Source: a virus
DNA length: 64,000 bases
Strand: one strand, 5' to 3'
Virus record (IMG/VR): IMGVR_UViG_3300045988_174094
Span: 44,932 to 108,931 of that record
Both the position numbers and the translations under genes were made by a program. Numbering within the stretch: the stretch's first letter is position 1; the number at the start of each line of letters is the position of its first letter. The notes beneath the pieces are model-generated. The model was not told the DNA's origin, ran no database searches, and worked only from the letters and a program-made list of their open reading frames with translations. Below, piece after piece: positions 1,229-44,736 of this stretch.

Positions 1229-1505
1229 CATTTTATTAGCTTATGCTTTCACATAAGATTAGACTATATCTTTTACCATAAAGGTAAGACACCATTTCAT
1301 AATTTACTCCCGTAGGATAGTCGTTGAACCTCTCAAAATGAGTTGGATGCTGATTACCCATTATAAAAATCTTTAGGCTTTCACCGTAGACCATTCCAAA
1401 ACTTGTTTCTGCTTTCGCTCCATAAAAGGCATTTGGACTTTAGGGCTTCCCAGCAATTAGATGTCTGATTTATCTCCTTTTTACAAAGGAGAGGCGCAAA
1501 ATCTT
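1229..1505 (-). mobile_element. ORF-less group I intron 1 in terL (277 nt)
   Basis: 5' exon ends GGCGU and can pair with GCGCC eight nt downstream (P1 with U-G). Core boxes on the minus strand: CTAATTGCTGGG (rc 1450-1461), GGGTAATCAGCATCC (rc 1345-1359), GGTAAAAGATATAGTCT (rc 1261-1277, P7-like as in T4 td-type introns). Ends in G at 1229. Splicing restores the terL frame. Confidence 0.7.
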
Positions 1506-1894
1506 ACGCCTTGTGTTTTGACTGGCGCAATGAGGGAACATTTGTGGCCAGGGATGAAAACGCATTGTAAAAACATTCCTAGAACAGAAAGAAAAGATTT
1601 AGAGGCCGCGCGCGTTGCTGTTATATAAACTTGATTATAACGCATCAGAGACCTCAAGAAGCATCGCTGATACGGAAATAGATCAAATTGGCTATTTTCT
1701 GGCTGGATTGTGTCTAAGTATACGTCAGGGTATACGGTATAAAGTTGCGTCAAATCCGCAAAAAACTTTTCATTACGCAATAAAAAGTCTTCAGTAACTT
1801 CAACACCTTTTTCAAGTAAAATGCCATCTCGATAGATACGATTATCTTGGAGAAAAGGAGAAGTGGGCGGGCGCAATTGAATTACATTACTCAT
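1506..1894 (-). CDS. terL: terminase large subunit, exon 1
   Basis: Contains LFPYQRCFLRSLMRYNQVYITATRAASKSFLSVLG.., a Walker-A-like terminase ATPase N-terminus. The tail of track ORF 1481-1894 (VRFCASPL*) is intron read-through. Confidence 0.8.
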
Positions 1895-4810: not shown

Positions 4811-4839
4811 TTGACATTGTTAGACGCCTGTGGTAAAAT
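4811..4839 (+). promoter_or_regulatory. early promoter TTGACA-17-TAAAAT with TG extension
   Basis: ttgacattgttagacgcctgtggtaaaat. A TTAGACG half-site (4820-4826) lies in the spacer. Confidence 0.65.
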
Positions 4840-4898
4840 ATGACCGTAAACAAAAACAAAACATCGACAGCGGGACAGACCGCGGAAAGGAAACTAAA

Positions 4899-5399
4899 AT
4901 GACAATTGAAAAGTATGGTTACGCCGACAGTGATTGCGGCCGCAATGGCAAGGCTTTTGAACGTCTCTGCAAAGAAAGATTGCATATGCAGTCTAAAGTG
5001 GCAGCGCCCGGCCGTACAGATATGCGCCGCGCCGCGCAGTGCTATGAAGTAAAAACCGGAGCAGGCGAGCTTGGCAAGTTAGGTGACAAGCTGGTCAAGG
5101 GGTCGCGTTATGTGATTTATTGTCCTGTCATCAATCCCGACAAAGAATTGACGGAACAGAGAGCCTATGTTATGACACGCGACACTTTCCTTGAAGTGCT
5201 TGCAGAGGCTGGGCTACTCCGTGAAAAGACTTCTACCAACGGTGAGCGTAAAGTGACAATTCAAACGTTTTGGAACAATAAGCTGAACGCACCGCACGGC
5301 AAGAAGTATTTCAAGTTACTTGACATTCTGGAGTTTTCTGTATCTGCGGGGCGGGCAATGCCGTTTTCCGATTGGCTGGACAATGGGTGGGCGCTCTAA
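4899..5399 (+). CDS. hypothetical early protein
   Basis: ATG 4899 follows GGAAAGGAAA. In frame with track ORF 4830-5399. Confidence 0.75.
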   Translation: MTIEKYGYADSDCGRNGKAFERLCKERLHMQSKVAAPGRTDMRRAAQCYEVKTGAGELGKLGDKLVKGSRYVIYCPVINPDKELTEQRAYVMTRDTFLEVLAEAGLLREKTSTNGERKVTIQTFWNNKLNAPHGKKYFKLLDILEFSVSAGRAMPFSDWLDNGWAL

Positions 5400-5435
5400 G
5401 CGCCCAGCCCCGTAAAATGAAAGGAGCTATGTGAC

Positions 5436-5672
5436 ATGGAAATGAATTTTAGACTGATTGTGCGCTATTACATGACAAAAGAAGTGACAGACCAGTATTT
5501 TGCAACGTTAGGCGACGCGGATACAGTAGTCACTTATCTTGACAAAGCTATAGAGAACGGCGCGCGTCTCGGCTTTGTCGTACAAGAAAAGGTCGCATCA
5601 GACGACATCGTAACCATAGATGAAAATGGGACTGACATTGGCGAGTGGCGCAACCTAAGATGGATTGTGTAA
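5436..5672 (+). CDS. hypothetical early protein
   Basis: AAAGGAG RBS; 78 aa. Confidence 0.75.
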   Translation: MEMNFRLIVRYYMTKEVTDQYFATLGDADTVVTYLDKAIENGARLGFVVQEKVASDDIVTIDENGTDIGEWRNLRWIV

Positions 5673-5726
5673 CCTAAAATGACATGATGCTGAGCTATCG
5701 GCATGACGGGCAGAAAGGAATATAAA

Positions 5727-5981
5727 ATGAAAAAAACTATTACTTTAGCTGACTTCTGCGACTATGTCGCGTATGCTTATCCCGAATACGTTTATGACGA
5801 TGAAACAGGCGCGGAATGGGTATATGACAATTCTAATTATGAGAACGACGGCTGCGGCCTCTATATCAACTCTGCAACAGGTGAAGTTCTCTTTCCCGAT
5901 GAGATTGAAAAATGGTACGTCAAAGGACTTGAGTTGACAAGAGACCATGAAATCATCGTTTATGTAGGAAAAGACGCGTAA
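5727..5981 (+). CDS. hypothetical early protein (ends ..KDA*)
   Basis: ATG 5727 follows AAAGGAA. The stop codon sits in the terminator loop. Confidence 0.75.
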   Translation: MKKTITLADFCDYVAYAYPEYVYDDETGAEWVYDNSNYENDGCGLYINSATGEVLFPDEIEKWYVKGLELTRDHEIIVYVGKDA

Positions 5982-5994
5982 AGCGTCTTTTCTT
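5970..5994 (+). terminator. intrinsic terminator, stop codon in loop
   Basis: aagacgc-gtaa-gcgtctt followed by a T-run. Confidence 0.7.
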
Positions 5995-6006
5995 ATATCA
6001 ATTGAT

Positions 6007-6021
6007 GTCACTTTACATGAC
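6007..6021. repeat. GTCAy-N5-rTGAC box
   Basis: gtcactttacatgac. Confidence 0.6.
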
Positions 6022-6059
6022 ATCACCCGGTCACGTCTAAAAGCAATGTAGTATGACTT

Positions 6060-6078
6060 TTAGACGTGGCTCGTCTAA
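6060..6078. repeat. TTAGACG-N5-CGTCTAA inverted repeat
   Basis: ttagacgtggctcgtctaa, perfect 7-bp arms. Confidence 0.9.
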
Positions 6079-6093
6079 GTCATCTTATGTGAC
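6079..6093. repeat. GTCAy-N5-rTGAC box
   Basis: gtcatcttatgtgac. Confidence 0.6.
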
Positions 6094-6105
6094 TTTTATT
6101 CATTT

Positions 6106-6124
6106 TTAGACGGAGTTCGTCTAA
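6106..6124. repeat. TTAGACG-N5-CGTCTAA inverted repeat
   Basis: ttagacggagttcgtctaa. An extra half-site lies at 6128-6134. Confidence 0.9.
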
Positions 6125-6156
6125 CTATTAGACGCCATTCTGCCATGTTAGATGAC

Positions 6157-6184
6157 TTGACTTTTCGCTATTATGTGATATAAT
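6157..6184 (+). promoter_or_regulatory. early promoter TTGACT-16-TATAAT (TG-extended)
   Basis: ttgacttttcgctattatgtgatataat. Confidence 0.65.
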
Positions 6185-6261
6185 ATAGGCAAGAACGGCG
6201 GGGAATGAATATTGCCCGAAATTTATTAGAATGTCGTATAACATGGAAGGAGTAATATATC

Positions 6262-6435
6262 ATGATAGTTTTGGTAGAACATAACAACGGCTTCAGGGGC
6301 CAGCATGGTATCAGCGAAGATAACATTGCTACTTTGGATGAACTGCCTTCTCTCATCCAAAGCTACATACAAGCTGGAAGCTGCGTTTATAAGCTGACAA
6401 TTTTGCCAGATCTAGAAGGAAAGAGCTTGACTTAG
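6262..6435 (+). CDS. hypothetical early protein, 57 aa (below ORF-track cutoff)
   Basis: GGAAGGAG RBS about 10 nt upstream. Translates MIVLVEHNNGFRGQHG... The stop lies inside hairpin gagcttgac-tta-gtcagctc. Confidence 0.6.
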   Translation: MIVLVEHNNGFRGQHGISEDNIATLDELPSLIQSYIQAGSCVYKLTILPDLEGKSLT

Positions 6436-6449
6436 TCAGCTCTAACTTC

Positions 6450-6468
6450 TTAGACGTAATTCGTCTAA
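6450..6468. repeat. TTAGACG-N5-CGTCTAA inverted repeat
   Basis: ttagacgtaattcgtctaa. Confidence 0.9.
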
Positions 6469-6477
6469 AAAATTTTC

Positions 6478-6506
6478 TTGACTTTTTCAAAAAATTCTGA
6501 TATAAT
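6478..6506 (+). promoter_or_regulatory. early promoter TTGACT-17-TATAAT
   Basis: Lies nine bp after the inverted repeat. Confidence 0.7.
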
Positions 6507-6529
6507 GTAATCAAAGAAAGGAGAAAACA

Positions 6530-6667
6530 ATGTATACTTACTTTATCCAGAACTTGGAAACCTTTGAATGCTCAATGATTTTTGGGCTAACTTTTGTGGA
6601 TGCAATGCAACGCGCAAATCTTTGTATTGGAGAGTGGATTTGTTATGCACAAGTTTATGAAGACTAA
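6530..6667 (+). CDS. hypothetical early peptide, 45 aa
   Basis: AAAGGAG RBS; MYTYFIQNLETFEC.. Confidence 0.5.
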   Translation: MYTYFIQNLETFECSMIFGLTFVDAMQRANLCIGEWICYAQVYED

Positions 6668-6806
6668 AAAATTTTTTGGAAATTTCTTTGGTGTAATTGG
6701 AATCCTTGTAATTCTTTGGCTTATTTTTTCTTATTTCAATGTAATTTTCGCGCGGCCATTTCTCGCAAATTGGAATATTTTCAAAATTTTTGAAGGGTGT
6801 TTTTGA
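6645..6806 (+). CDS. small membrane protein, 53 aa
   Basis: ATG 6645 follows GGAGAG. One hydrophobic helix, FFGVIGILVILWLIFSYF. Internal start of track ORF 6594-6806. Confidence 0.55.
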   Translation: MHKFMKTKKFFGNFFGVIGILVILWLIFSYFNVIFARPFLANWNIFKIFEGCF

Positions 6807-6807
6807 A

Positions 6808-7038
6808 ATGAAAGTTGAAAATATTACAATCAAAAGACGACAGATTTCTTTTTCAGACAAAGAATTTATTGATATCAGTAATGCGCGGCGTTGGTTGAGA
6901 AAAGCGTTGCAATTTACACAGGACAAAGGATTACAAAGAGCCGTTGATGAATTAGAAAATGTTTTGAACAATATCGAAATTCAAGACAATGGCAAATACT
7001 ACGTTTTTAGCGAAGAAATTTGGAGAGATGACGCATAA
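6808..7038 (+). CDS. hypothetical early protein (ends ..DDA*)
   Basis: ATG 6808 comes directly after the upstream TGA. In frame with track ORF 6790-7038. Confidence 0.7.
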   Translation: MKVENITIKRRQISFSDKEFIDISNARRWLRKALQFTQDKGLQRAVDELENVLNNIEIQDNGKYYVFSEEIWRDDA

Positions 7039-7052
7039 TGCGTCATTTCTCT
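7028..7052 (+). terminator. hairpin terminator with stop in loop (weak T-run)
   Basis: atgacgca-taa-tgcgtcat. Confidence 0.55.
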
Positions 7053-7063
7053 TCCAAAAAATT

Positions 7064-7082
7064 TTAGACGTTTATCGTCTAA
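7064..7082. repeat. TTAGACG-N5-CGTCTAA inverted repeat
   Basis: ttagacgtttatcgtctaa. Confidence 0.9.
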
Positions 7083-7092
7083 ATAAAAATTC

Positions 7093-7121
7093 TTGACAAA
7101 AGAAAAATTCTATGATATAAT
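7093..7121 (+). promoter_or_regulatory. early promoter TTGACA-17-TATAAT (TG-extended)
   Basis: ttgacaaaagaaaaattctatgatataat. Confidence 0.75.
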
Positions 7122-7150
7122 ACAAATACCAAATGAAAGGGGAATAAAAA

Positions 7151-7549
7151 ATGACTACTATCACAAAATATGTTTGCGATCTCTGCGGGCAGGTTTTTGA
7201 CAATGAAATTGAATGCCAGGGACATGAAATTTTAGAAAAAATCGGCGGCCATCTCAACGACGTTATCCTTTTCGATGGGAACAAGCAAGTTCTTTCTTTT
7301 GATACTGTAATTGCTAGTTTTTATGATGAAGTTTGGGGAATTTATATTGAAGATGAGAGCGCAATTCCTTTTGTAGAGGAAATTTTCAGATTCTGTGAAA
7401 TTATCTCTCCATGGAGTAGCGACGGCGGCAGTAATCGAAAAACGACGGGACTTTATCTTTATGATGACGAACATTATCGTTGGTATCTTCCCGCCGATAA
7501 AATCGAAGAACTGAAAAAAGAAATGAAAGAATACGGAGTTGACGCGTAA
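7151..7549 (+). CDS. hypothetical early protein, N-terminal CxxC..CxxH (ends ..VDA*)
   Basis: AAAGGGGA RBS; 132 aa. Confidence 0.8.
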   Translation: MTTITKYVCDLCGQVFDNEIECQGHEILEKIGGHLNDVILFDGNKQVLSFDTVIASFYDEVWGIYIEDESAIPFVEEIFRFCEIISPWSSDGGSNRKTTGLYLYDDEHYRWYLPADKIEELKKEMKEYGVDA

Positions 7550-7567
7550 TGCGTCAACTCTTTTTTT
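7537..7567 (+). terminator. intrinsic terminator, stop in loop
   Basis: gagttgacgc-gtaat-gcgtcaactc followed by T7. Confidence 0.8.
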
Positions 7568-7575
7568 ATATCAAT

Positions 7576-7594
7576 TTAGACGTTTCCCGTCTAA
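7576..7594. repeat. TTAGACG-N5-CGTCTAA inverted repeat
   Basis: ttagacgtttcccgtctaa. Confidence 0.9.
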
Positions 7595-7603
7595 AAGTTT
7601 TTC

Positions 7604-7631
7604 TTGACTTTTTCAGAAAATATGGTATAAT
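7604..7631 (+). promoter_or_regulatory. early promoter TTGACT-16-TATAAT
   Basis: First of a tandem promoter pair. No ORF follows it. Confidence 0.65.
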
Positions 7632-7700
7632 ATAGATAGTTAGAGGAAAGAATTTTAGAAAATTTTACAAAAATAATTTCCAGAAATTTTGAAATTCATC

Positions 7701-7729
7701 TTGACAAGCCGCGTGAAACGTGCTATAAT
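7701..7729 (+). promoter_or_regulatory. early promoter TTGACA-17-TATAAT (TG-extended)
   Basis: ttgacaagccgcgtgaaacgtgctataat. Confidence 0.7.
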
Positions 7730-7735
7730 AATTGC

Positions 7736-7890
7736 GTAATCAAGAGAAGATGGTTGTGGGTGGGTTAGGAAAAATCTTCTTTATTGATACTGTTTCCTCC
7801 TGATGGTTGGAGAAAATAGTACTCCTTTCTTTTGTGTTTTTGTTTTGTTTACATTGAAATGCGCGGGCAACCATCACCGCGCGTTTCTTC
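7736..7890 (+). ncRNA. candidate small non-coding RNA (promoter-to-terminator unit without ORF)
   Basis: No ORF with an RBS lies between the -10 at 7724-7729 and hairpin gcgcgg..ccgcgc plus gtttcttc (7861-7890). The 5' end, GCGTAATCAAGAGA, matches the leader of gene 9249. Internal stem agaagat..atcttct. Confidence 0.4.
7861..7890 (+). terminator. terminator of the ORF-less unit
   Basis: gcgcgg-N10-ccgcgc followed by gtttcttc. Confidence 0.55.
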
Positions 7891-7900
7891 TAGTGGGAAA

Positions 7901-7919
7901 TTAGACGTGGTTCGTCTAA
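7901..7919. repeat. TTAGACG-N5-CGTCTAA inverted repeat
   Basis: ttagacgtggttcgtctaa. Confidence 0.9.
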
Positions 7920-7929
7920 TAAAAAGTTC

Positions 7930-7957
7930 TTGACTTTTCTGAAAAATATGATATAAT
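7930..7957 (+). promoter_or_regulatory. early promoter TTGACT-16-TATAAT
   Basis: ttgacttttctgaaaaatatgatataat. Confidence 0.7.
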
Positions 7958-7991
7958 ATAATTACCAAACAAAAGAAAAGGAGATTCTAAA

Positions 7992-8357
7992 ATGGATTAC
8001 AAAGCAATTGAAGAAATGTACGGCGGTATTCCTGAAAAGACCGAAATGGACAAACTCATTGACTACTTGAAGATTTGCCCACCGGAAAAGTATACTTATT
8101 CAGTCACCGAGTGCTATGGACGTCCTCAAGTCATTTTTATGGACTTTCAGACAGGCGAACGAGTAGCCGATTGCGTTTGCCATAGCGGAAGTTATGGACA
8201 CGAGCGCGGACTGATTGAAGCAATGGGTGCGCCACTTGTCAATGAAGAAGAAGTTGGGGATGATGTCGAAGGATGGCTGAGTGCGGTTGACATTATGTCA
8301 AGAATTTGTGAACTGCCTCCCGATAATATTTTGAAAATCGTAGGGGAGGACGCGTAA
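7992..8357 (+). CDS. hypothetical early protein (ends ..EDA*)
   Basis: AAAAGGAG RBS; 121 aa. Confidence 0.8.
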   Translation: MDYKAIEEMYGGIPEKTEMDKLIDYLKICPPEKYTYSVTECYGRPQVIFMDFQTGERVADCVCHSGSYGHERGLIEAMGAPLVNEEEVGDDVEGWLSAVDIMSRICELPPDNILKIVGEDA

Positions 8358-8371
8358 AGCGTCCTCTTTTT
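8347..8371 (+). terminator. intrinsic terminator, stop in loop
   Basis: gaggacgc-gtaaa-gcgtcctc followed by T5. Confidence 0.75.
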
Positions 8372-8372
8372 A

Positions 8373-8391
8373 TTAGACGTCCATCGTCTAA
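8373..8391. repeat. TTAGACG-N5-CGTCTAA inverted repeat
   Basis: ttagacgtccatcgtctaa. Confidence 0.9.
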
Positions 8392-8407
8392 ACATTTCTC
8401 ACGCGAA

Positions 8408-8422
8408 GTCATCTTATATGAC
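8408..8422. repeat. GTCAy-N5-rTGAC box
   Basis: gtcatcttatatgac. Confidence 0.6.
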
Positions 8423-8441
8423 AAAAATTTCTAAAAAGTTC

Positions 8442-8470
8442 TTGACAAAAAAAGAAAACTATGATATAAT
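8442..8470 (+). promoter_or_regulatory. early promoter TTGACA-17-TATAAT
   Basis: ttgacaaaaaaagaaaactatgatataat. Confidence 0.75.
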
Positions 8471-8499
8471 TTAGATACAAAAAGAAAGGAGTTTTTGAA

Positions 8500-8952
8500 A
8501 TGGAAAAAATTATTAGTTTAGATATGGACGGCACAATTGTAGATTTCTACGGCGTTGAAAATTGGCTTCCGAAAATTCGTGCACATGACGCAAGCCCGTA
8601 CAGAGACGCGCGCGCACTTGTAAATCTTTCAAGGCTTGCGCGACGTTTGAACGCAATCCAGCGCAAGGGATGGAAAATTCGTGTGGTTTCGTGGGGAAGT
8701 AAAGACCGCGACAAAAATTTTCTTGAAGAAGTTCGTCGCGCAAAAATTGAATGGTTAGCGCGTCATTTGAAAAGTGTTCATTTTGATGAAATTTGTATTG
8801 TTCATTATGGAACGCCAAAAAGCAAAGTTGGCACGTTACGCGGCGGTTTTCTTTTTGATGATGAAAAGCCAAATCGTGAAGAATGGACACGCGCGGGAAT
8901 GACGGCATATGACGCGACAGAAATTTTTGACTTCCTTCGTTCGATTAGGTGA
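8500..8952 (+). CDS. HAD-superfamily phosphatase, 5'(3')-deoxyribonucleotidase-like
   Basis: N-terminal DMDGT (HAD motif I) and later FLFDDE. 150 aa. AAAGGAG RBS. Confidence 0.7.
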   Translation: MEKIISLDMDGTIVDFYGVENWLPKIRAHDASPYRDARALVNLSRLARRLNAIQRKGWKIRVVSWGSKDRDKNFLEEVRRAKIEWLARHLKSVHFDEICIVHYGTPKSKVGTLRGGFLFDDEKPNREEWTRAGMTAYDATEIFDFLRSIR

Positions 8953-8981
8953 TGCGTAAAGCGTCACCTTTTTTGTTTTTT
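8948..8981 (+). terminator. intrinsic terminator overlapping the stop codon
   Basis: ggtgatgc-gtaaa-gcgtcacc followed by a long T-run. Confidence 0.8.
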
Positions 8982-8984
8982 GTC

Positions 8985-9003
8985 TTAGACGTAGACCGTC
9001 TAA
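8985..9003. repeat. TTAGACG-N5-CGTCTAA inverted repeat
   Basis: ttagacgtagaccgtctaa. Confidence 0.9.
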
Positions 9004-9019
9004 ATATTTCTCGCGCGAA

Positions 9020-9034
9020 GTCACGTTATGTGAC
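9020..9034. repeat. GTCAy-N5-rTGAC box
   Basis: gtcacgttatgtgac. Confidence 0.6.
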
Positions 9035-9054
9035 AAAATTTCTAAAAATTCTTC

Positions 9055-9083
9055 TTGACTTCTCGCGCAGATTATGGTATAAT
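9055..9083 (+). promoter_or_regulatory. early promoter TTGACT-17-TATAAT (first of tandem pair)
   Basis: A 12-bp stem follows (gtcaagaggga..tttcctcttgac, 9091-9145). Its 3' arm carries the -35 of the second promoter. Confidence 0.65.
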
Positions 9084-9140
9084 CCATAATGTCAAGAGGG
9101 AAAGAAACAAAAAAGAAATTGAAAAAAGTGAAATTTCCTC

Positions 9141-9169
9141 TTGACAAATTCAAAAAACTATGGTATAAT
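9141..9169 (+). promoter_or_regulatory. early promoter TTGACA-17-TATAAT (second of tandem pair)
   Basis: ttgacaaattcaaaaaactatggtataat. Confidence 0.7.
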
Positions 9170-9248
9170 AAAAGCGTAATCAAGAGAGGAAACCTCTTGA
9201 ATATAAAAAATAGGGTGGCGACCGTCGCTAAAATGAAAGGAATCTATT

Positions 9249-9641
9249 ATGACTACTCGTGAATTCTACAATGCTGTCCTGTCCATGGAAAACGTTTCCG
9301 CTGAAATCTCTGAAAAGGCTGCCGCGCTCCTGTCCGCAATGGACAAAAAGAACGCTGAACGTTCCTCTAAGCCGACAAAGGCGCAGAAAGAAAACGAAGC
9401 GCTCCTGCCCATCATGCGCGAAGTCCTCGCAGCTGCCGACCATCCCATCACCGCGTCTGACCTCTTTGACGCAAAGCCGGAGCTGAAGAACGTTCAGAAG
9501 TGTTCCTCTCTGCTCCGTATGCTTGAGAAGTCCGGTGAAGTGACTTCTGTTGAAGTCAAGGTGAAAGGCAAGGGGAAGGTAAAGGGCTATTCCCTCGCGG
9601 ACGCAGAGCCGAGCGACACCGCGCCGAGCGACGCCGAGTAA
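9249..9641 (+). CDS. winged-helix-like DNA-binding protein, paralog of 12546-12914
   Basis: MTTREFYNAVLSMENVSAEI.. aligns by eye with MTKREFLNTIATAENLPAEL.. Codon usage is conspicuously richer in GC than in neighbouring genes. Confidence 0.8.
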   Translation: MTTREFYNAVLSMENVSAEISEKAAALLSAMDKKNAERSSKPTKAQKENEALLPIMREVLAAADHPITASDLFDAKPELKNVQKCSSLLRMLEKSGEVTSVEVKVKGKGKVKGYSLADAEPSDTAPSDAE

Positions 9642-9649
9642 ACGTAACG

Positions 9650-9679
9650 GGACGTCACATAATGTGACGTCCTTTTTTT
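9650..9679 (+). terminator. intrinsic terminator built on a GTCAC..GTGAC box
   Basis: ggacgtcaca-taa-tgtgacgtcc followed by T7. Confidence 0.8.
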
Positions 9680-9688
9680 CTGGGGTAT

Positions 9689-9707
9689 TTAGACGTCCAT
9701 CGTCTAA
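9689..9707. repeat. TTAGACG-N5-CGTCTAA inverted repeat
   Basis: ttagacgtccatcgtctaa. Confidence 0.9.
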
Positions 9708-9724
9708 AACTTTTCCGCGCAGGC

Positions 9725-9739
9725 GTCACTTCACATGAC
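9725..9739. repeat. GTCAy-N5-rTGAC box
   Basis: gtcacttcacatgac. Confidence 0.6.
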
Positions 9740-9767
9740 AAAATCTAAAAAATTTTTCTCTGAATAC

Positions 9768-9796
9768 TTGACTTTTTGAAAAAATTATGGTATAAT
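9768..9796 (+). promoter_or_regulatory. early promoter TTGACT-17-TATAAT
   Basis: ttgactttttgaaaaaattatggtataat. Confidence 0.75.
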
Positions 9797-9831
9797 CTAG
9801 TTACCAAATGAAAGAAAGGAAATCAAAAACT

Positions 9832-10215
9832 ATGGCAAGTAAAATTGAAACTGAAATCCGCGAGGAATTTATGTCTGCCGTGCGCGAACTGTTTGAGGGC
9901 AAGGGTGAGGACGTGTTACAGGTCAAAAGCGGGACTATTTCTATTCCGTGGGTGCGTGGTGATGACGAGGGATATTTGAATATCGCTTTCAGTATTCCGA
10001 AGGGCGAACGGGACAAAGAAAATAAATGTTATATTCCTTATGACGGTTACGAGGAAGCGCAGAACTACGCACAGGAAACCGAAGCAAAGCGCGCAAAGAA
10101 AGCCGAAACCGCAAAGAAGAAAGCCGAAAAAATCGCGCGTGACGAGAAGAACCGCGCCGAGGCAAAGCGCAAGCGCGAAGAACGCGAAAAGGAAAAGGAG
10201 GAGAGTGACGCGTAA
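9832..10215 (+). CDS. hypothetical early protein with K/E/R-rich tail (ends ..SDA*)
   Basis: ATG 9832 follows AAAGAAAGGAAA. In frame with track ORF 9808-10215. Confidence 0.75.
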   Translation: MASKIETEIREEFMSAVRELFEGKGEDVLQVKSGTISIPWVRGDDEGYLNIAFSIPKGERDKENKCYIPYDGYEEAQNYAQETEAKRAKKAETAKKKAEKIARDEKNRAEAKRKREEREKEKEESDA

Positions 10216-10234
10216 AGCGTCACCCTCTTTTTTT
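10201..10234 (+). terminator. intrinsic terminator, stop in loop
   Basis: gagagtgacgc-gtaaa-gcgtcaccctc followed by T7. Confidence 0.8.
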
Positions 10235-10241
10235 CGGAATT

Positions 10242-10260
10242 TTAGACGTAGATCGTCTAA
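10242..10260. repeat. TTAGACG-N5-CGTCTAA inverted repeat
   Basis: ttagacgtagatcgtctaa. Confidence 0.9.
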
Positions 10261-10269
10261 AAATTTCTC

Positions 10270-10298
10270 TTGATAAAATCAAAATCTTATGCTATAAT
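10270..10298 (+). promoter_or_regulatory. early promoter TTGATA-17-TATAAT
   Basis: ttgataaaatcaaaatcttatgctataat. Confidence 0.7.
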
Positions 10299-10344
10299 CT
10301 AATTATCAAATGAAAGAAACACCTAAAAGAAAGGAATCTAAAAA

Positions 10345-10527
10345 ATGAGATATTTTATCAATGAACGAAACGGCGCGATGACGAACACCACCGATAATCA
10401 AGAAGTAGAAAGATTGCTTGCTAATGGATACAAAGAAATTAGTGAAGAAGTTTATACCATGGAATACCGCAAGGCGTATTTCTATGCTATCGGCGATTTT
10501 GACAAGGCTTTTTCTGAGGACACATAA
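10345..10527 (+). CDS. hypothetical early protein, 60 aa
   Basis: AAAGGAA RBS. The stop lies in hairpin gaggacacataacatgtcctc. Confidence 0.7.
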   Translation: MRYFINERNGAMTNTTDNQEVERLLANGYKEISEEVYTMEYRKAYFYAIGDFDKAFSEDT

Positions 10528-10544
10528 CATGTCCTCTTTTTTTC
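10516..10544 (+). terminator. intrinsic terminator, stop in loop
   Basis: gaggaca..tgtcctc followed by T8. Confidence 0.8.
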
Positions 10545-10550
10545 AAGATT

Positions 10551-10569
10551 TTAGACGAAATACGTCTAA
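10551..10569. repeat. TTAGACG-N5-CGTCTAA inverted repeat
   Basis: ttagacgaaatacgtctaa. Confidence 0.9.
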
Positions 10570-10578
10570 AAATTCTTC

Positions 10579-10606
10579 TTGACAAATTATAAAATTATGG
10601 TATAAT
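10579..10606 (+). promoter_or_regulatory. early promoter TTGACA-16-TATAAT
   Basis: ttgacaaattataaaattatggtataat. Confidence 0.7.
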
Positions 10607-10634
10607 ACAAATACTAAAAGAAAGGGGAATGAAA

Positions 10635-10967
10635 ATGAATAAAGAATTTTTGGAAAGTCTCGCTAATTGTTTAGAAAATTTTATTTCTAATGAAGTCGAA
10701 AAACGTTGTAAAAAATTAGAAGACGAAAAAAATGCCGCGGAATGGAATTCACAACGTTATAAAGGATGGCTGCTTTTTCTCATAAAAGATAACTCTATCA
10801 ATCTTGATAAATTATATGAAGAAGCAGAAAGAGAATCCCGTGAATGGGAAGAAAGTGATGCTCATAACGGAGTATTTGGACTGTCAAAAGGGAGACTTGA
10901 AGCAGACGATAGAACATACATGTATAAATGTATCAAAAAATTCAAAGAATCTTATGAGGACGCATAA
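10635..10967 (+). CDS. hypothetical early protein (ends ..EDA*); alternative ATG at 10629
   Basis: AAAGGGGAA RBS; 110 aa. Confidence 0.75.
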   Translation: MNKEFLESLANCLENFISNEVEKRCKKLEDEKNAAEWNSQRYKGWLLFLIKDNSINLDKLYEEAERESREWEESDAHNGVFGLSKGRLEADDRTYMYKCIKKFKESYEDA

Positions 10968-10985
10968 CGCGTCCTCTTCTCATTC
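10956..10985 (+). terminator. hairpin with stop in loop (weak T-run)
   Basis: gaggacgc-ataa-cgcgtcctc. Confidence 0.5.
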
Positions 10986-10993
10986 GTTCTACC

Positions 10994-11012
10994 TTAGACG
11001 AAAAACGTCTAA
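10994..11012. repeat. TTAGACG-N5-CGTCTAA inverted repeat
   Basis: ttagacgaaaaacgtctaa. Confidence 0.9.
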
Positions 11013-11026
11013 ATCCTCTGCCGAGC

Positions 11027-11041
11027 GTCGTCTTACGTGAC
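11027..11041. repeat. GTCAy-N5-rTGAC box (degenerate left arm)
   Basis: gtcgtcttacgtgac. Confidence 0.5.
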
Positions 11042-11052
11042 AAAAAAAGTTC

Positions 11053-11081
11053 TTGACAAAATCCCTTTTCTATGCTATAAT
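11053..11081 (+). promoter_or_regulatory. early promoter TTGACA-17-TATAAT
   Basis: ttgacaaaatcccttttctatgctataat. Confidence 0.75.
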
Positions 11082-11140
11082 ATGGATACGTTGAGAGAGG
11101 ATGAACGACCCCTCAATGAAATATGAAAGGACTTTGAAAA

Positions 11141-11887
11141 ATGAAAATTTGTGTATTCGACACTGAAACGACCAGCCTTGAAAAACCGTATTGTTATAAC
11201 GTCGGCTATCTGATTCTTGATACAGAATCCCGCGCTTGTCTTGTAAAGCGTGAATTTGTCATTGAACAAATTTGGCACAATCTCCCGCTTTTCAATACTG
11301 CGTACTACGCAAACAAGCGTTCTATTTATGTAGGCGCTTTGAGAGCGCGAACTATCCGCATGGAAAAGTTCGGTTATGTGACACAGCAGATGCTCCGTGA
11401 TTTCCGCAATTATGAAGTTGAACGCGCGTTTGCTTACAATTCCGCTTTTGATGAAAAAGTTTTCAATTTCAATTGCGATTGGTTCAAAGTAATAAATCCT
11501 TTTGAAACTGTTCCTATTTCTGATATCCGCGGTTTTGTCCATCATTTTATGATTGATGACACATTCCGCGCATGGTGCGAAGAAAATAATGCTTTTACTG
11601 AAAGCGGGCAGTATTCGACAACTGCCGAAGTATTGACACGTTACATCCGTTCTGACACGTCATTTGTCGAAGACCATACCGCACTTTCTGATAGCGAAAT
11701 CGAAGCAGAAATTTTGTTTACTTGCCTTGACCGTGGCGCAGATTTGAACGGAAACTATCAGGCAAAGCGTTCTATTGAACGTAAAATGACGCGCGAGTTC
11801 ACTATTGACTTGCCGGGTGAAAAAATTATCGTCGAAGGAACGCGCGCGACGTATTACAAGACAAAGAATAAATTCGTGGTGCGTTGA
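11141..11887 (+). CDS. DEDDh 3'-5' exonuclease (DnaQ-like fold)
   Basis: Motifs FDTETT (Exo I), AYNSAFDEKV (Exo II), HTALSDSEIE (Exo III, H-x4-D). Confidence 0.8.
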   Translation: MKICVFDTETTSLEKPYCYNVGYLILDTESRACLVKREFVIEQIWHNLPLFNTAYYANKRSIYVGALRARTIRMEKFGYVTQQMLRDFRNYEVERAFAYNSAFDEKVFNFNCDWFKVINPFETVPISDIRGFVHHFMIDDTFRAWCEENNAFTESGQYSTTAEVLTRYIRSDTSFVEDHTALSDSEIEAEILFTCLDRGADLNGNYQAKRSIERKMTREFTIDLPGEKIIVEGTRATYYKTKNKFVVR

Positions 11888-11900
11888 CACATAAAGAGGA

Positions 11901-11929
11901 AAAGGACACATCATGTGTCCTTTTCTTTT
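11901..11929 (+). terminator. intrinsic terminator
   Basis: aaaggacaca-tca-tgtgtccttt followed by tctttt. Confidence 0.75.
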
Positions 11930-11939
11930 ACGCATCTTT

Positions 11940-11958
11940 TTAGACGTATGACGTCTAA
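11940..11958. repeat. TTAGACG-N5-CGTCTAA inverted repeat (no promoter follows)
   Basis: ttagacgtatgacgtctaa. Confidence 0.9.
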
Positions 11959-12051: not shown

Positions 12052-12066
12052 GTCACGTTACGTGAT
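12052..12066. repeat. GTCAy-N5-rTGAC box
   Basis: gtcacgttacgtgat. Confidence 0.55.
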
Positions 12067-12099: not shown

Positions 12100-12114
12100 A
12101 TCACATTATGTGAT
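12100..12114. repeat. GTCAy-N5-rTGAC box (variant)
   Basis: atcacattatgtgat. Confidence 0.5.
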
Positions 12115-12315: not shown

Positions 12316-12330
12316 GTCATTTTACATGAC
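12316..12330. repeat. GTCAy-N5-rTGAC box
   Basis: gtcattttacatgac. Confidence 0.6.
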
Positions 12331-12345
12331 AGCGCGCACCAAAAT

Positions 12346-12360
12346 GTCACGTAACGTGAC
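12346..12360. repeat. GTCAy-N5-rTGAC box
   Basis: gtcacgtaacgtgac. Confidence 0.6.
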
Positions 12361-12545: not shown

Positions 12546-12914
12546 ATGACTAAGAGAGAATTTCTGAACACTATCGCTACCGCTGAAAACCTGCCCGCTG
12601 AACTGGTTGAATTCGCCGCACACGAGCTGGAAGTAATGAACGCTGCAAACGAGAAGAACCGCGCCAAGGCAGCTGAGAAGCGCGCCACAAAGGACGCAGA
12701 GAAGGAGCCTATTCGTAACGCCATTATGGACGTTATGACGAATGAGCCGCAGACCGCCACTATGCTCATCGAGGCAGCTGGCCTCACCGAAACCGTGAAG
12801 CCTCAGTCTATCCCTTCTCTTCTGAAACCCCTCATCGAGGCAGGAACGCTTGAGAAGGTCGATATGAAGATTCCGGAGAAGAAGGGAACTCAGAAGGGCT
12901 ATAAGCTTTCCTAA
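12546..12914 (+). CDS. winged-helix-like DNA-binding protein, paralog of 9249-9641
   Basis: N-terminus and length match the paralog. GC-rich codons. RBS AAGAAGGA. Confidence 0.8.
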   Translation: MTKREFLNTIATAENLPAELVEFAAHELEVMNAANEKNRAKAAEKRATKDAEKEPIRNAIMDVMTNEPQTATMLIEAAGLTETVKPQSIPSLLKPLIEAGTLEKVDMKIPEKKGTQKGYKLS

Positions 12915-12970: not shown

Positions 12971-12985
12971 GTCATGTAACGTGAT
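12971..12985. repeat. GTCAy-N5-rTGAC box
   Basis: gtcatgtaacgtgat. Confidence 0.55.
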
Positions 12986-13022: not shown

Positions 13023-13075
13023 TTGAATTTTTGAAATGAATTGAATTTTGAAATGAATTGAATTTTGAAACGAAA
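13023..13075 (+). repeat. tandem repeat, ~17-18 bp unit TTGAATTTT(T)GAAAyGAA x3
   Basis: ttgaatttttgaaatgaa / ttgaattttgaaatgaa / ttgaattttgaaacgaa. Confidence 0.85.
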
Positions 13076-13199
13076 CCTATCTCAACACATCTCAATCCGC
13101 CAATGGCCACAACCATTGATCGCCATCGTCCGGACACGTACTCTACCCCTCCCACGTGGGGAACTGTGCCATCCCTTCTATATATAAGCCATTGCTTCT

Positions 13200-13995
13200 A
13201 AGCCTTTGCGTCTAAGCTTCTCTTTTTTTCCTTTCTTTTGTCTTTTTGTTCCCCCTCTTTTTCTCTTTCTTTTCTACTCCCTTCTATTCTCCCCTTTTTT
13301 CTTCATTTTTCTCCCCTTTTTTCTTCATTTTTCTCCCCTTTTTTTTGGAATTTTTTCTGTTCTCCCCTTTTTTTTGGAATTTTTTCTGTTCTCCCCTTTT
13401 TTTTGGAATTTTTTTTCGTTTACACTTTTTCTACGTTTTTTTCTCTTCCTTCCCTCTATTCTCCCTTTTTCTTTTCTCCAATTTTACTTTTCCCCTCTTA
13501 TTAGTTCTATTGATTACACCCTTTTCTTTTTTCTTCTCTATTTCCTTCGTTTTTTCTTTTTCCCCTCTTTTTATCCTCTTCTTTTGTTTTTTTCTTTTAC
13601 GTCCTTCTATTTATACTCTTCTTTTATTTTTCTTTTTTCTTTCTCTCCTATCTTTTCTTCTTCTATTTCCCCCCTTTTATTACTCCCTCTTATATATATT
13701 CTTTCTCTAATTCTATTATTTACACCTTTCTATATAATTCTTCTTCTAATTTTTTTCTTTTCTCCCCCTTTTATTTTCCCCCTATTATTTTTTCTTCCTC
13801 TATATTTTCTACTTTTCCCTTTTTCTTTTTTCTTTCCTATTTTTTCTTTTTATTTTTATTTTTCTTTTTCTACTTCTTTTTTATTTCTATTCTCTCCTTT
13901 CTTCTATGCTCCCCTTACTTCTAAACCACTTTCTTCTACGAATTATTTCGTAAGCCCTATTTCTTACAAAAATATTCTTATCCGTTTTCTCTAAC
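13200..13995 (+). other. ~0.8 kb polypyrimidine (T/C) tract, non-coding
   Basis: Many 60-nt lines hold only 0-3 purines, and G is nearly absent. All three + frames are stop-free but translate to F/L/S/P strings without RBS. Confidence 0.9.
13289..13420 (+). repeat. tandem repeats inside the CT tract (22-bp unit x2, then 29-bp unit x~2.5)
   Basis: CTCCCC plus T6-8 boxes start at 13289, 13311, 13333, 13362 and 13391. They are separated by cttcattttt or ggaattttttctgtt. Confidence 0.9.
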
Positions 13996-34859: not shown

Positions 34860-35692
34860 TCCTTTCCGTCAAAAGGGATTTGTTCCCTGAAAATAAAATA
34901 TCTATGGGTTCTTCAACCTACCGAAAACTAACTTCAAGTATATTCAGTCAAGAGCACCATGGGGCTGAGCATACGCAGCGTCCCGCGCATACTTCCCATA
35001 GTCGCACCTTCGTGCGCGTAGTCTCTTCTGGATTGATTACCAGAACCTTTCACCAGCCATTCAGCAAGTTCTTGATTTTTATTATCAATAATCATTATTG
35101 TGCTTGTCTTTGGCTACTCAGAGGCCACATACACGTCTTATACACGAATTTCTTCGCTTCACAACAAACTGGCTTGTGGTTATTTCCTAATCAAATGATT
35201 TACCCACAGTCACCAACTAAGGGAGATTAGGATTCAGCTTTCAATTATCTTGAAAGCCTCTATTACGCCAGCGACGCGCGTCCTACCTTTACTCGCGTTA
35301 GTCTCGATGCCGCCTCTTAGGGTTGGGAGTCCATCCTCTATGGCACGCAACTCACGTCACGCGCGCCGGTCAGTATCCACAAGTATCCTTGTTCGTTGTC
35401 TGCCGCCCTTTCCAAGACGCCTCGACATTCCTAGTCACAGAATGTTTGTCATCGAGTTCTAAGATATTTTATTTTCAAGGAACAAATAGAGAATTTAGCG
35501 TTACCCAACATCTACCACGTGGAGGTATTCTCTTTTAGATGTCTTGCGCACGAACGAGTTGCACGTTGTCTCCAGATAATGAGTCTGGCGTCCTACTGTT
35601 AGACGACCTGCGCAGTATTTAGGTCATTTATCCTATAACTCCCACGACCAAGGATGCACTTTTGGTAGCATTTCCACCAGTCTAAAACTGGT
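34860..35692 (-). ncRNA. element B: ~830-nt ORF-free, GC-enriched candidate structured RNA downstream of tRNA(CAA)
   Basis: No RBS-linked ORF on either strand. The central part (35230-35460) is much richer in GC than the flanks. Shares boxes GAGTAGCCAAAGA (rc 35107-35119) and TAGTTGGT (rc 35212-35219) with element A. Confidence 0.35.
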
Positions 35693-42199: not shown

Positions 42200-42431
42200 T
42201 ATTGTTCCACTCCCACCTTGTTTTATCGTCAACATCAATTACAAAATATTCTTTGTCAATCTGGTCAATTCGGAGTTGATGAATTCCATAGGTATTAAGT
42301 TCAGGTAAAAAGTATGCTAAATCTTCAATATTAAGACAAACATCGCCTTCTATTAGTTGACCATAAATATCATCATTTACTCTTTTTCTTTCTTCATAAT
42401 AATCTTTATATTCATTACTCATATTACCCAA
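42180..42431 (-). CDS. hypothetical protein
   Basis: 83-aa ORF. Confidence 0.65.
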   Translation of the reverse strand: MGNMSNEYKDYYEERKRVNDDIYGQLIEGDVCLNIEDLAYFLPELNTYGIHQLRIDQIDKEYFVIDVDDKTRWEWNNNEEIYL

Positions 42432-43350: not shown

Positions 43351-43352
43351 AT

Positions 43353-44461: not shown

Positions 44462-44736
44462 ATTTCTTCCCTTTTAGCATCTAGCCACATTTCAATCAGC
44501 TCTTCATCTGTCAAATCTGCCACTCCGTATGGACACTCATCCACTTCAAACTCACATGGTGCAAACGACTGATCGCAGTCGTGACCCTCCAAGCGTCCTA
44601 TAATTGGAGGACATTTCTTACAATATTCCTTATCCAACCACTGAAGCCATGGTGCGTTCTCAACTAGTTCAAAACCGGCGAGCCATCTCACAAAATCCTT
44701 CTCAGAAAAATTTTTCAAAAATTCTCGATTAGTCAA
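44458..44736 (-). CDS. hypothetical Cys-rich protein
   Basis: 92-aa ORF. Confidence 0.7.
   Translation of the reverse strand: MTNREFLKNFSEKDFVRWLAGFELVENAPWLQWLDKEYCKKCPPIIGRLEGHDCDQSFAPCEFEVDECPYGVADLTDEELIEMWLDAKREEI

Follow-up and report, generated by a model that had tools for sequence, protein, structure and literature searches.

Thirteen perfect copies of an interrupted palindrome at the early promoters of an uncultured gut or rumen phage: a probable protein operator

A perfect interrupted palindrome, TTAGACG-N5-CGTCTAA, is present thirteen times in one 6-kb block of phage DNA, mostly just upstream of early promoters, and is probably a protein operator. The DNA analysed, called the window hereafter, is a 64,000-nucleotide stretch of a large phage genome (positions 44,932 to 108,931 of IMG/VR record IMGVR_UViG_3300045988_174094; coordinates below are those of the window). 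A sequence-only reading of this stretch had pointed out the palindromes and proposed an operator for a dimeric regulator. The proposal was strengthened by the comparative evidence reported here, namely the fixed position of the site, its helical phasing and its switching between lineages, while the winged-helix reader suggested at the same time was not supported. To the more specific reading, an operator for the whole early regulon, read by a dimeric protein and serving most likely for shut-off, we would give an even chance.

An exact search of the 64-kb window recovered all thirteen copies where they had been placed. Every copy lies within 6060-11958 and none elsewhere, in line with the earlier remark that no full copy is seen outside 6-12 kb, and the chance expectation is 0.00 copies (100 dinucleotide-preserving shuffles). 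Copies with one or two mismatches are absent from the window, and allowing up to three adds only two matches, both with three mismatches (4820 and 23362), for a chance level of 2.2. Since near-misses are no more frequent than expected by chance, the set is all-or-none. The half-sites noted at 4820, 6034, 6128 and 13209 are all real, and six further ones are found across the remaining ~50 kb of the window, which is about chance density. As described, the 7-bp arms are identical and the five central bases variable: the 14 arm positions are 100% identical, compared to 36% for the centre. Identity among units is 35-39% over the 20 nt upstream of the palindrome, ~50% in the promoter spacers, and 35-57% in the flanks overall. 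We conclude that the arms are under selection and are not remnants of recent duplications, because they are invariant while centre and flanks have diverged. The thirteen copies, with their central bases and their distance to the next -35 box, are the following.

6060-6078: palindrome 1, centre TGGCT; distal site of the control region of the promoter at 6157 (P6157), 78 bp to the -35, centre at ~-123
6106-6124: palindrome 2, centre GAGTT; 32 bp to the -35 at 6157, centre at ~-77
6450-6468: palindrome 3, centre TAATT; 9 bp to the -35 at 6478, centre at ~-54
7064-7082: palindrome 4, centre TTTAT; 10 bp to the -35 at 7093
7576-7594: palindrome 5, centre TTTCC; 9 bp to the -35 at 7604
7901-7919: palindrome 6, centre TGGTT; 10 bp to the -35 at 7930
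8373-8391: palindrome 7, centre TCCAT; 50 bp to the -35 at 8442, with a palindrome of a second family (type 2) between them at 8408-8422, centre at ~-95
8985-9003: palindrome 8, centre TAGAC; 51 bp to the -35 at 9055, type-2 palindrome between them at 9020-9034
9689-9707: palindrome 9, centre TCCAT; 60 bp to the -35 at 9768, type-2 palindrome between them at 9725-9739
10242-10260: palindrome 10, centre TAGAT; 9 bp to the -35 at 10270
10551-10569: palindrome 11, centre AAATA; 9 bp to the -35 at 10579
10994-11012: palindrome 12, centre AAAAA; 40 bp to the -35 at 11053, type-2 palindrome between them at 11027-11041, centre at ~-85
11940-11958: palindrome 13, centre TATGA; ends the block after the terminator of the exonuclease-like gene, without a promoter downstream

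All thirteen are held by an early-gene block (4811-11958, plus strand) built of short units, each with a promoter, one or a few small open reading frames (ORFs), mostly orphans, and a terminator. Fifteen near-consensus plus-strand early promoters (TTGACw-16/17-TGnTATAAT) were found, 11 of them with a palindrome upstream. Six copies (6450, 7064, 7576, 7901, 10242 and 10551) do end 9-10 bp before the -35, and the promoters that follow them match the consensus at 11-12 of 12 positions, with a TG-extended -10. A second element stands before the promoter in six other units (6060, 6106, 8373, 8985, 9689 and 10994), and not in five as first counted; it is either a member of the second palindrome family or extra sequence. 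Relative to nominal start sites, the centres of the palindromes fall at ~-54/-55 (six copies), -77, -85, -95/-96, -105 and -123. The copy at 11940 indeed has no promoter after it, and relatives carry extra units inserted exactly at this position. Finally, an intrinsic terminator lies just upstream of 10 of the 13 copies, rather than of each of them as had been stated: the copy at 6450 is preceded only by a weak hairpin lacking a T-run, and those at 6060 and 6106 are 64 and 110 nt past the nearest terminator. The promoters, terminators and associated sites are listed below, the main palindrome being referred to as type 1.

4820-4826, plus strand: type-1 half-site in the spacer of the first early promoter (4811-4839)
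6007-6156: dense control region upstream of P6157, with palindromes 1 and 2, type-2 palindromes (6007-6021, 6079-6093 and a degenerate one at 6142-6156) and type-1 half-sites (6034-6040 and 6128-6134)
6157-6184, plus strand: promoter TTGACT-16-TATAAT, TG-extended
6478-6506, plus strand: promoter TTGACT-17-TATAAT
7093-7121, plus strand: promoter TTGACA-17-TATAAT
7604-7631, plus strand: promoter TTGACT-16-TATAAT
7930-7957, plus strand: promoter TTGACT-16-TATAAT
8442-8470, plus strand: promoter TTGACA-17-TATAAT
9055-9083, plus strand: promoter TTGACT-17-TATAAT
9768-9796, plus strand: promoter TTGACT-17-TATAAT
10270-10298, plus strand: promoter TTGATA-17-TATAAT
10579-10606, plus strand: promoter TTGACA-16-TATAAT
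11053-11081, plus strand: promoter TTGACA-17-TATAAT
7028-7055, plus strand: intrinsic terminator before palindrome 4, stop codon in the loop
7535-7568, plus strand: intrinsic terminator before palindrome 5
7861-7892, plus strand: intrinsic terminator before palindrome 6, closing an ORF-less unit
8346-8371, plus strand: intrinsic terminator before palindrome 7
8947-8982, plus strand: intrinsic terminator before palindrome 8
9649-9680, plus strand: intrinsic terminator before palindrome 9
10201-10235, plus strand: intrinsic terminator before palindrome 10
10516-10543, plus strand: intrinsic terminator before palindrome 11
10956-10986, plus strand: intrinsic terminator before palindrome 12
11899-11931, plus strand: intrinsic terminator before palindrome 13

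The arrangement is shared by a large clade. An exact-pattern scan of IMG/VR gave at least 119 stretches, and 62 of the matches listed have three or more copies. In these 62 stretches, 511 copies are perfect, 15 have one mismatch and 2 have two, and among the matches listed 511 spacers are 5 bp long, three are 4 bp and one is 7 bp. An even spread over the genome, named beforehand as a reason to give up the operator idea, was not seen: among the matches listed, the matching stretches are contiguous within contigs of 100-120 kb, and there is one palindrome cluster per genome. Within each locus, the promoters are constantly on the same side of the palindromes. For gap statistics, 704 non-redundant units with four arm types were collected. 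A promoter is found within 110 bp in ~83% of these units, and a terminator upstream in ~65%, the palindrome then starting 6-17 nt past it. With TTAGACG arms, the most frequent gap to the -35 is 9 bp (179 units), next to 8 bp in 37 units and 12 bp in 63; TCGTACG units have their mode at 8 bp and TTAGATG units at 9 bp. Additional gap classes are found at 20, 29 and 39 bp, and classes of 12 and 23 bp also exist beside these steps of ~10 bp. From 14 bp upwards, the gaps show a period of 9.5-11.5 bp (vector strength ~0.33-0.36, related units being counted separately), and none of 7, 8 or 13 bp (~0.1).

To follow the site further, the orthologous neighbourhoods of 79 contigs were fetched with the exonuclease-like gene (11141-11887) as anchor, relatives being sampled over ~10 kb on either side of it. 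Phages with a 45-60% identical exonuclease show the same order of terminator, palindrome, ~9 bp and -35, and TTAGACG is kept across phages whose exonucleases are only ~50% identical. More distant relatives have other arms, TTAGATG, TTGGATG, TCGTACG, TTATCTG, TTACTGT or CTATATG, with up to 40 copies in 20 kb in the TTAGATG lineage; a variant with a 6-bp spacer was also found with TTAGACG and TTAGATG. IMG/VR contigs representing the arm types are 3300045988_178038 (TTAGACG), 3300028591_000102 (TTAGATG), 3300031994_000011 (TTGGATG), 3300033463_000286 (TCGTACG), 3300018493_000099 (TTATCTG), 3300021400_001201 (TTACTGT) and 3300029305_005185 (CTATATG). A few lineages have other upstream motifs, or A-tracts only. 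Arm types are mixed in only 2 of 225 loci, genomes being otherwise uniform, and both arms switch together between lineages. The dyad symmetry often runs into the centre, as in TTGGATGTA-N-TACATCCAA, TTAGACGAA-N-TTCGTCTAA and TTATCTGTT-N-AACAGATAA; the lineage of the window has the most relaxed centre of those compared.

These comparisons bear on whether the palindrome could act as a nucleic-acid hairpin, be it as an insulator or second terminator of read-through transcripts, as a place of RNA processing, or as a cruciform of supercoiled DNA. Its place shortly after a terminator in ~65% of units (6-17 nt) would suit such a role, several copies score as terminator-like in a simple scan, and the arms co-vary between lineages as stems do. 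However, the stem is weak (-6 to -7 kcal/mol, with 3 G-C pairs) and is followed by A's (consensus TCTAAAAaat), so that the G+C-rich hairpin and T-run of an intrinsic terminator are both missing, while a true terminator is already present upstream. Properly terminated transcripts would never include the site, which only read-through could reach. Moreover, a structure by itself would not need one sequence for all copies of a genome. In the 62 listed stretches no imperfect copy, including all 15 one-mismatch variants, has a compensating change on the other arm; 11 of the 15 single mismatches are not wobble-compatible, and several lineages are symmetric down to a 1-nt centre, which is unable to form a loop. 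A hairpin function is therefore very improbable. The single sequence per genome, the joint switching of the arms and the symmetry at the would-be loop argue instead for a dimeric reader of duplex DNA.

Some relatives deserve separate mention. Two arm types are found together in locus L198 (IMGVR_UViG_3300028805_000070), with 22 TTAGATG and 9 TTGGATG copies, and this phage may be an intermediate in a specificity switch. In L202 (2200-5950), arrays of GCGGTCGGGT repeats abut the -35 in place of the palindrome, and in L188 (900-9400) a GCGCCCGGGCGC palindrome and a TTCACAA-like motif replace the usual one. Relatives with TCGTACG or TTAGACGTA arms have sequences resembling the LexA box of Firmicutes (CGAACATATGTTCG) beside the early block, as well as a TTGTTAATAA-T-TTATTAACAA palindrome.

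L145, 15270-15380; L143, ~13290; L146, ~5500 and 14420: LexA-box-like or TTGTTAATAA-T-TTATTAACAA sites

Protein binding, a dimeric state of the reader, an action on RNA polymerase and the sign of the effect are what we infer from these sequence data, and they could be combined as follows. A dyad-symmetric dimeric protein would read the palindrome as duplex DNA, one copy being present at nearly every early promoter. The site would span ~-63 to -45 (centre ~-54), just upstream of an A/T tract and of the -35, and an inserted second element would shift it upstream by roughly whole helical turns. The bound protein would thereby sit on one face of the helix, where the C-terminal domains of the RNA polymerase alpha subunits contact upstream DNA; these domains bind upstream elements in the -45 to -63 stretch. 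One factor might then damp or shut off the early regulon together, either as early shut-off or as feedback, possibly by blocking the upstream contacts, or by holding the polymerase at a strong promoter. A motif common to the promoters of many operons, as expected for a global repressor, is indeed seen at 11 of the 15 window promoters, and with a fixed gap throughout the clade. A negative global role is favoured, because the promoters are near-consensus, TG-extended, provided with an A/T tract, and need no activator; between the two signs, we lean slightly towards repression rather than activation.

The opposite sign would make the palindrome an upstream activator or recruitment site, at which a dimeric factor bound at ~-54 plus whole turns, host-encoded or delivered by the virion, would boost early transcription through a class-I contact. 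The arm type would in that case follow the host or the delivered factor. An upstream location on one helical face, with increments of ~10 bp, is what such a contact would demand, and is the class-I activator geometry known for CRP. The reader would have to be far more conserved than any DNA-binding protein near the block, and no examined phage protein tracks the arm type, as detailed below. The preferred -10 also differs by arm type (TATACT in the TTAGATG and TTGGATG lineages, TATAAT in the TTAGACG lineages), as different hosts could explain. Nevertheless, promoters that already match 11-12 of 12 consensus positions, with a TG extension and an A/T tract, leave little for an activator to do, and promoters of equal strength are present in the palindrome-free lineages, where plain A-tracts take up the -45 to -63 stretch. 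In bacterial collections, multi-copy matches were confined to phage-like contigs, although an adjacent TTGAC was required, so that a host regulon could escape this search. Altogether, we consider an activator site, the foremost of the rival readings, unlikely.

Several observations weigh against the operator reading itself. With its centre near -54, the site misses the core promoter, over which most repressors bind. Conservation that is all-or-none at 14 positions exceeds what most operator sets show, and resembles more that of an enzyme recognition site. About 17% of the 704 units have no detectable promoter, as is the case for the conserved block-end copy. The phasing statistics treat related units as independent, so their p-values are untrustworthy, and all centre positions refer to start sites that are nominal, not mapped. 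Lastly, no reader was found among the phage proteins examined. In a specificity-position test of seven families (including the exonuclease, the nucleotidase, the g9832 family, the sigma-like and YonG_N proteins and the winged-helix paralogs), no column separates 35 TTAGACG from 5 TCGTACG loci; what makes this test informative is that L145 and L183 depart from the backbone phylogeny. Two candidates vary strongly between phages with a constant site. One is the PD-(D/E)xK-like product of the first early gene (4899-5399, plus strand; motif residues D41, E50 and K52), which is encoded in most TTAGACG, TCGTACG and TTAGATG loci where the region is available, and in 0 of 13 loci lacking a palindromic motif. 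This protein is hypervariable, 36-43% identical between phages that share TCGTACG and an 86-94% identical exonuclease, and the comparison suggests an arms-race function for the family. The other, a winged-helix protein of the MarR_2/TrmB type (47419-48105), is 44-58% identical despite the same palindrome and a 96-97% identical exonuclease.

Other candidates fared no better. The winged-helix paralogs of the window (9249-9641 and 12546-12914), which the sequence-only reading had suggested as readers, belong to a family whose profile matches MarR-type structures (1ku9, E = 1.2e-5; AdcR; ZitR), and relatives have two to five such paralogs each. The classes of their recognition helices cut across the arm types: the g12546-class helix (QxIPSLLKP), apparently constant in the TTAGACG lineages, recurs in L183 (TCGTACG) and L188 (GCGCCCGGGCGC), and g9249-class helices differ among TTAGACG lineages. 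The g9832 family is present in 64 of 80 loci, covering nearly all palindrome-bearing lineages and hardly any others; it was rejected as well, its core being almost unchanged in L145 (TTAGACG), L146 (TCGTACG) and L181, which has no such palindrome. A single-sequence AlphaFold model of g9832 was poor (pLDDT 65), and a homologue search returned only sequences 95-99% identical to it. Pfam and PHROGs profiles detected no MrpR-like, ParB-like, recombinase or HUH protein among ~70 window proteins, and a literature search for this motif, or for upstream palindromes at phage early promoters, brought nothing relevant. Since no examined conserved early protein tracks the arm type, the reader is encoded beyond the sampled ~10 kb flanks, or is unusually conserved, or is a host protein.

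Regulators of comparable layout are known. In the large Firmicute phage SPbeta, the master repressor MrpR binds a 15-bp element called SPBRE, copies of which lie in ~10 regions with early promoters (PMC10516654). By analogy, SPbeta may serve as a precedent for an operator: a short conserved element is placed at many early-gene promoters in both phages, a single reader is known in SPbeta, and a YonG_N domain, so called after yonG of SPbeta, is present in one protein of the window phage. In contrast, SPBRE copies are spread over the prophage and maintain lysogeny, whereas here 13-40 copies are gathered in one block at a fixed distance to the -35, and the MrpR fold, that of tyrosine recombinases, was not among the ~70 window proteins scanned. 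In the KorB-OB system of the IncP plasmid RK2, many promoters have a palindromic operator (TTTAGCSGCTAAA) at a set distance upstream; the dozen or so copies are nearly identical, and KorB is a dimeric global repressor that acts on RNA polymerase from upstream. Both systems have a set of palindromic operators at promoters, with a single dimeric reader in the case of RK2. The difference is that RK2 is a plasmid and KorB belongs to the ParB family, of which no domain was found in the window; the outer bases TTTAG...CTAAA common to OB and our palindrome are probably a coincidence. Protein p4 of phi29 has its sites upstream of strong early promoters, where it touches the alpha C-terminal domain; its repression works by over-stabilising RNA polymerase, as at A2c. 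These sites are few and are not perfect palindromes. The host-takeover module of SPO1, the phage of TF1, has about a dozen strong early promoter-terminator units with small host-takeover genes in one block, but its early promoters are not known to have a common invariant palindrome. No homologues of p4, p6 or TF1 were detected.

The palindromes are also the places where related phages differ. When the window was aligned with nine close relatives (exonuclease 90-98% identical, 11-17 copies each), high-scoring segment pairs ended at palindromes (8392, 9004, 9709-9713, 10262, 10992 and 11958), and the overlap of neighbouring segments was no more than the terminator-palindrome stretch. Units are either there in full or missing: among the nine relatives, 10345-10527 is found only in L124, and 10629-10967 only in L122. 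As every unit carries the site between its terminator and the next promoter, the palindrome may have a second role and mark the seams at which related phages acquire, lose and swap their early-gene units. As many contigs end near the early block, we also asked whether it might be a long terminal repeat, and rejected this: within 10 kb, a contig end interrupts ~39% of loci, near the random expectation.

A likeness to the promoter-early stem-loop (PeSL) cassettes of T4-type phages (Comeau et al. 2014, PMC4122927) had been suggested, and is borne out by these synteny breaks and by the gain and loss of whole units. In the window and in the clade, as in PeSL cassettes, a composite of terminator stem-loop and near-consensus sigma-70 early promoter is repeated between small variable ORFs, here mostly orphans; close relatives show indels and replacements at the motif, the sequence of which differs between phage lineages. 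Terminator, palindrome and promoter follow one another in 10 of the 13 units of the window. PeSL cassettes of T4-type phages were reportedly the subject of Arbiol et al. 2010. The PeSL stem-loop is the terminator itself and is degenerate, whereas here a separate, invariant 7-N5-7 palindrome stands between terminator and promoter. The phage is in addition unrelated to T4, its genome not being that of a T4-type myovirus, and its host is probably a Firmicute. Finally, the units are 35-57% identical outside the arms, so that repeated sequence sufficient for homologous recombination, and probably for mini-circles, is lacking.

This last point bears on a passive role, in which the palindrome would be a readerless part of a PeSL-type terminator-promoter module, giving homology for recombination and kept uniform by gene conversion. 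Indels and replacements unit by unit at the motif are what it would predict, and T4-like PeSL are composite terminator-promoter repeats that flank variable ORFs (PMC4122927). Yet the longest exact stretch shared by units is ~7-9 bp, too short for homologous recombination or conversion; conversion would have homogenised centre and flanks as well, and the same arms are kept across phages at ~50% protein identity. Because units share too little outside the arms, homologous recombination or gene conversion cannot explain the seams or the invariance, and a passive role is very improbable.

An active mobilisation of the units has a little more in its favour. A nuclease or recombinase would cut or pair flanking palindromes and promote exchange between co-infecting phages, in an integron-like or homing-like manner. 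Invariant arms, a free spacer of fixed length and no degenerate copies are features of interrupted palindromes cleaved by PD-(D/E)xK endonucleases; type II enzymes such as BglI and SfiI have N5 spacers. Synteny with relatives at 90-98% is broken at palindromes, single units are present or absent, and the PD-(D/E)xK-like protein, encoded by the first early gene, is almost restricted to palindrome-bearing loci. Nonetheless, this protein does not co-vary with the site, and restriction sites would be avoided in a phage's own genome, while here the palindrome is enriched. Crossover by tyrosine or serine recombinases needs matching overlap sequences, so centres that vary between copies (36% identity) argue against the core site of such an enzyme, and neither this nor an integron attC is indicated by the early block, where no integrase, recombinase, HUH or homing-endonuclease domain was found. 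Mobility would also leave the strict 9-bp distance to the -35, and the phasing, without explanation. We judge it improbable that the site is there for mobilisation. REP elements, extragenic palindromes associated with RAYT transposases, are likewise uniform within a genome and different between lineages, but no RAYT or HUH gene was found here, and all copies stay within one 6-kb block, their position tied to the -35.

Operator and exchange seam could be joined in a bolder scheme, to which we attach a small probability. The palindrome would be an 'address' private to each lineage for the early regulon, its reader being of an unrecognised kind or a hijacked host factor; specificity would switch stepwise, all 13-40 sites following, and a shared code would license the exchange of units. 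If so, lytic phages would have an integron-like economy of gene cassettes, and barriers resembling heteroimmunity would separate the codes. Operators at early promoters and cassettes of the PeSL type are kinds already known; the perfect invariance, the strict geometry and the stepwise switching of specificity are what is unusual here.

Practical consequences follow from the description of the site. It is a simple and exact handle on the early regulon: nearly every early promoter is marked by it, the limits of the exchangeable units with host-takeover genes are set by it, and the related contigs, which number in the hundreds, can be sorted by it into 'code' groups. Should a single factor be its reader, this factor would be a master switch of early transcription, and the seven or more natural arm variants would form a data set on how regulator and site change specificity together. 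The promoter-operator-terminator units are compact and insulated parts that might find new use in Firmicutes.

A second palindrome family, GTCAY-N5-RTGAC, was seen in the window, with 32 strand-hits for 1.6 expected.

6007-6021, 6079-6093, 6142-6156, 8408-8422, 9020-9034 and 9725-9739: type-2 palindromes, first part
11027-11041, 12052-12066, 12100-12114, 12316-12330, 12346-12360 and 12971-12985: type-2 palindromes, second part

At the promoters of the conserved early genes, namely those for the nucleotidase, the winged-helix protein, g9832 and the exonuclease, these type-2 sites separate the main palindrome from the -35; they also bracket the promoter of the winged-helix gene 12546-12914. They vary between lineages, as with TACAC-N5-GTGTA in L148. 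Their placement and lineage variation make it plausible that they are operators of the winged-helix paralogs.

Other features of the early transcripts were recorded. Many early ORFs have their stop codon in the loop of the terminator hairpin (GACGCGTAAAGCGTC type), the proteins ending in ...DA, and relatives likewise have TAA in terminator loops.

5971-5996, 7028-7055, 7535-7568, 8346-8371, 10201-10235, 10516-10543 and 10956-10986: terminators with a stop codon in the loop

One unit, from the promoter at 7701-7729 through the terminator at 7861-7892 (window 7701-7895, plus strand), is without ORF, and its 160-nt RNA folds better than shuffled sequences (z = -2.9). The leader GCGTAATCAAGAGA is present both at 7732 and at 9174 (regions 7701-7895 and 9141-9248). 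Tandem promoters are present at 7604/7701 and 9055/9141. In L149 and L150, a conserved leader opens the transcripts of most early promoters, with a short stem-loop (e.g. AAGTGAAGGAAAACACTT), then AAACCAGAA, then the ribosome-binding site.

The phage comes from gut or rumen and is uncultured. Megablast of the window against cultured phages gave no match, and no close cultured phage was found: the best protein match to cultured phages is ~33% identical, and the topoisomerase II subunit is at most 33% identical. It is very abundant in public assemblies, one early protein being found at 99% identity on 155 contigs of up to ~120 kb. In bacterial genome collections (adjacent TTGAC required), multi-copy palindrome-plus-promoter matches were found only on short contigs, presumably of phage origin, binned into metagenome-assembled genomes of ruminant-gut Clostridia, Acutalibacteraceae and Ruminococcus. 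This binning, taken with the CHAP lysin and with promoters of the sigma-A type that have an extended -10, makes a Firmicute of the Oscillospirales kind the probable host.

The window encodes topoisomerase II subunits, a DnaB-like helicase, a primase, a ligase and a sigma-like protein, as well as a CHAP endolysin, tail-fibre-like proteins, a PhoH-like protein and a ClpP-like protease. Its RNAs comprise four tRNAs, a ROOL RNA, a drum RNA and a group I intron, the last three scoring above the Rfam gathering score. Four homing-endonuclease-like ORFs, three GIY-YIG and one HNH, lie inside the replication gene blocks.

34887-35480, minus strand: ROOL RNA, full-length, 285 bits
37149-37276, minus strand: drum RNA adjoining the tRNA cluster
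1240-1515, minus strand: group I intron within a terminase-like ORF
42424-43362, minus strand: homing-endonuclease-like GIY-YIG/HNH ORF
49404-50150, plus strand: homing-endonuclease-like GIY-YIG/HNH ORF
60507-61235, plus strand: homing-endonuclease-like GIY-YIG/HNH ORF
62337-63056, plus strand: homing-endonuclease-like GIY-YIG/HNH ORF

At 44733-46294 (minus strand), a dNMP-kinase-like gene adjoins a family-2 glycosyltransferase gene. This pair suggests that the phage DNA may carry a hypermodified, possibly glycosylated base, which would affect any DNA-binding test. Finally, ~900 bp of C/T-rich tandem repeats (13023-13923, periods of 12-58), without credible ORF, form the junction between the early block and a long block of minus-strand genes.

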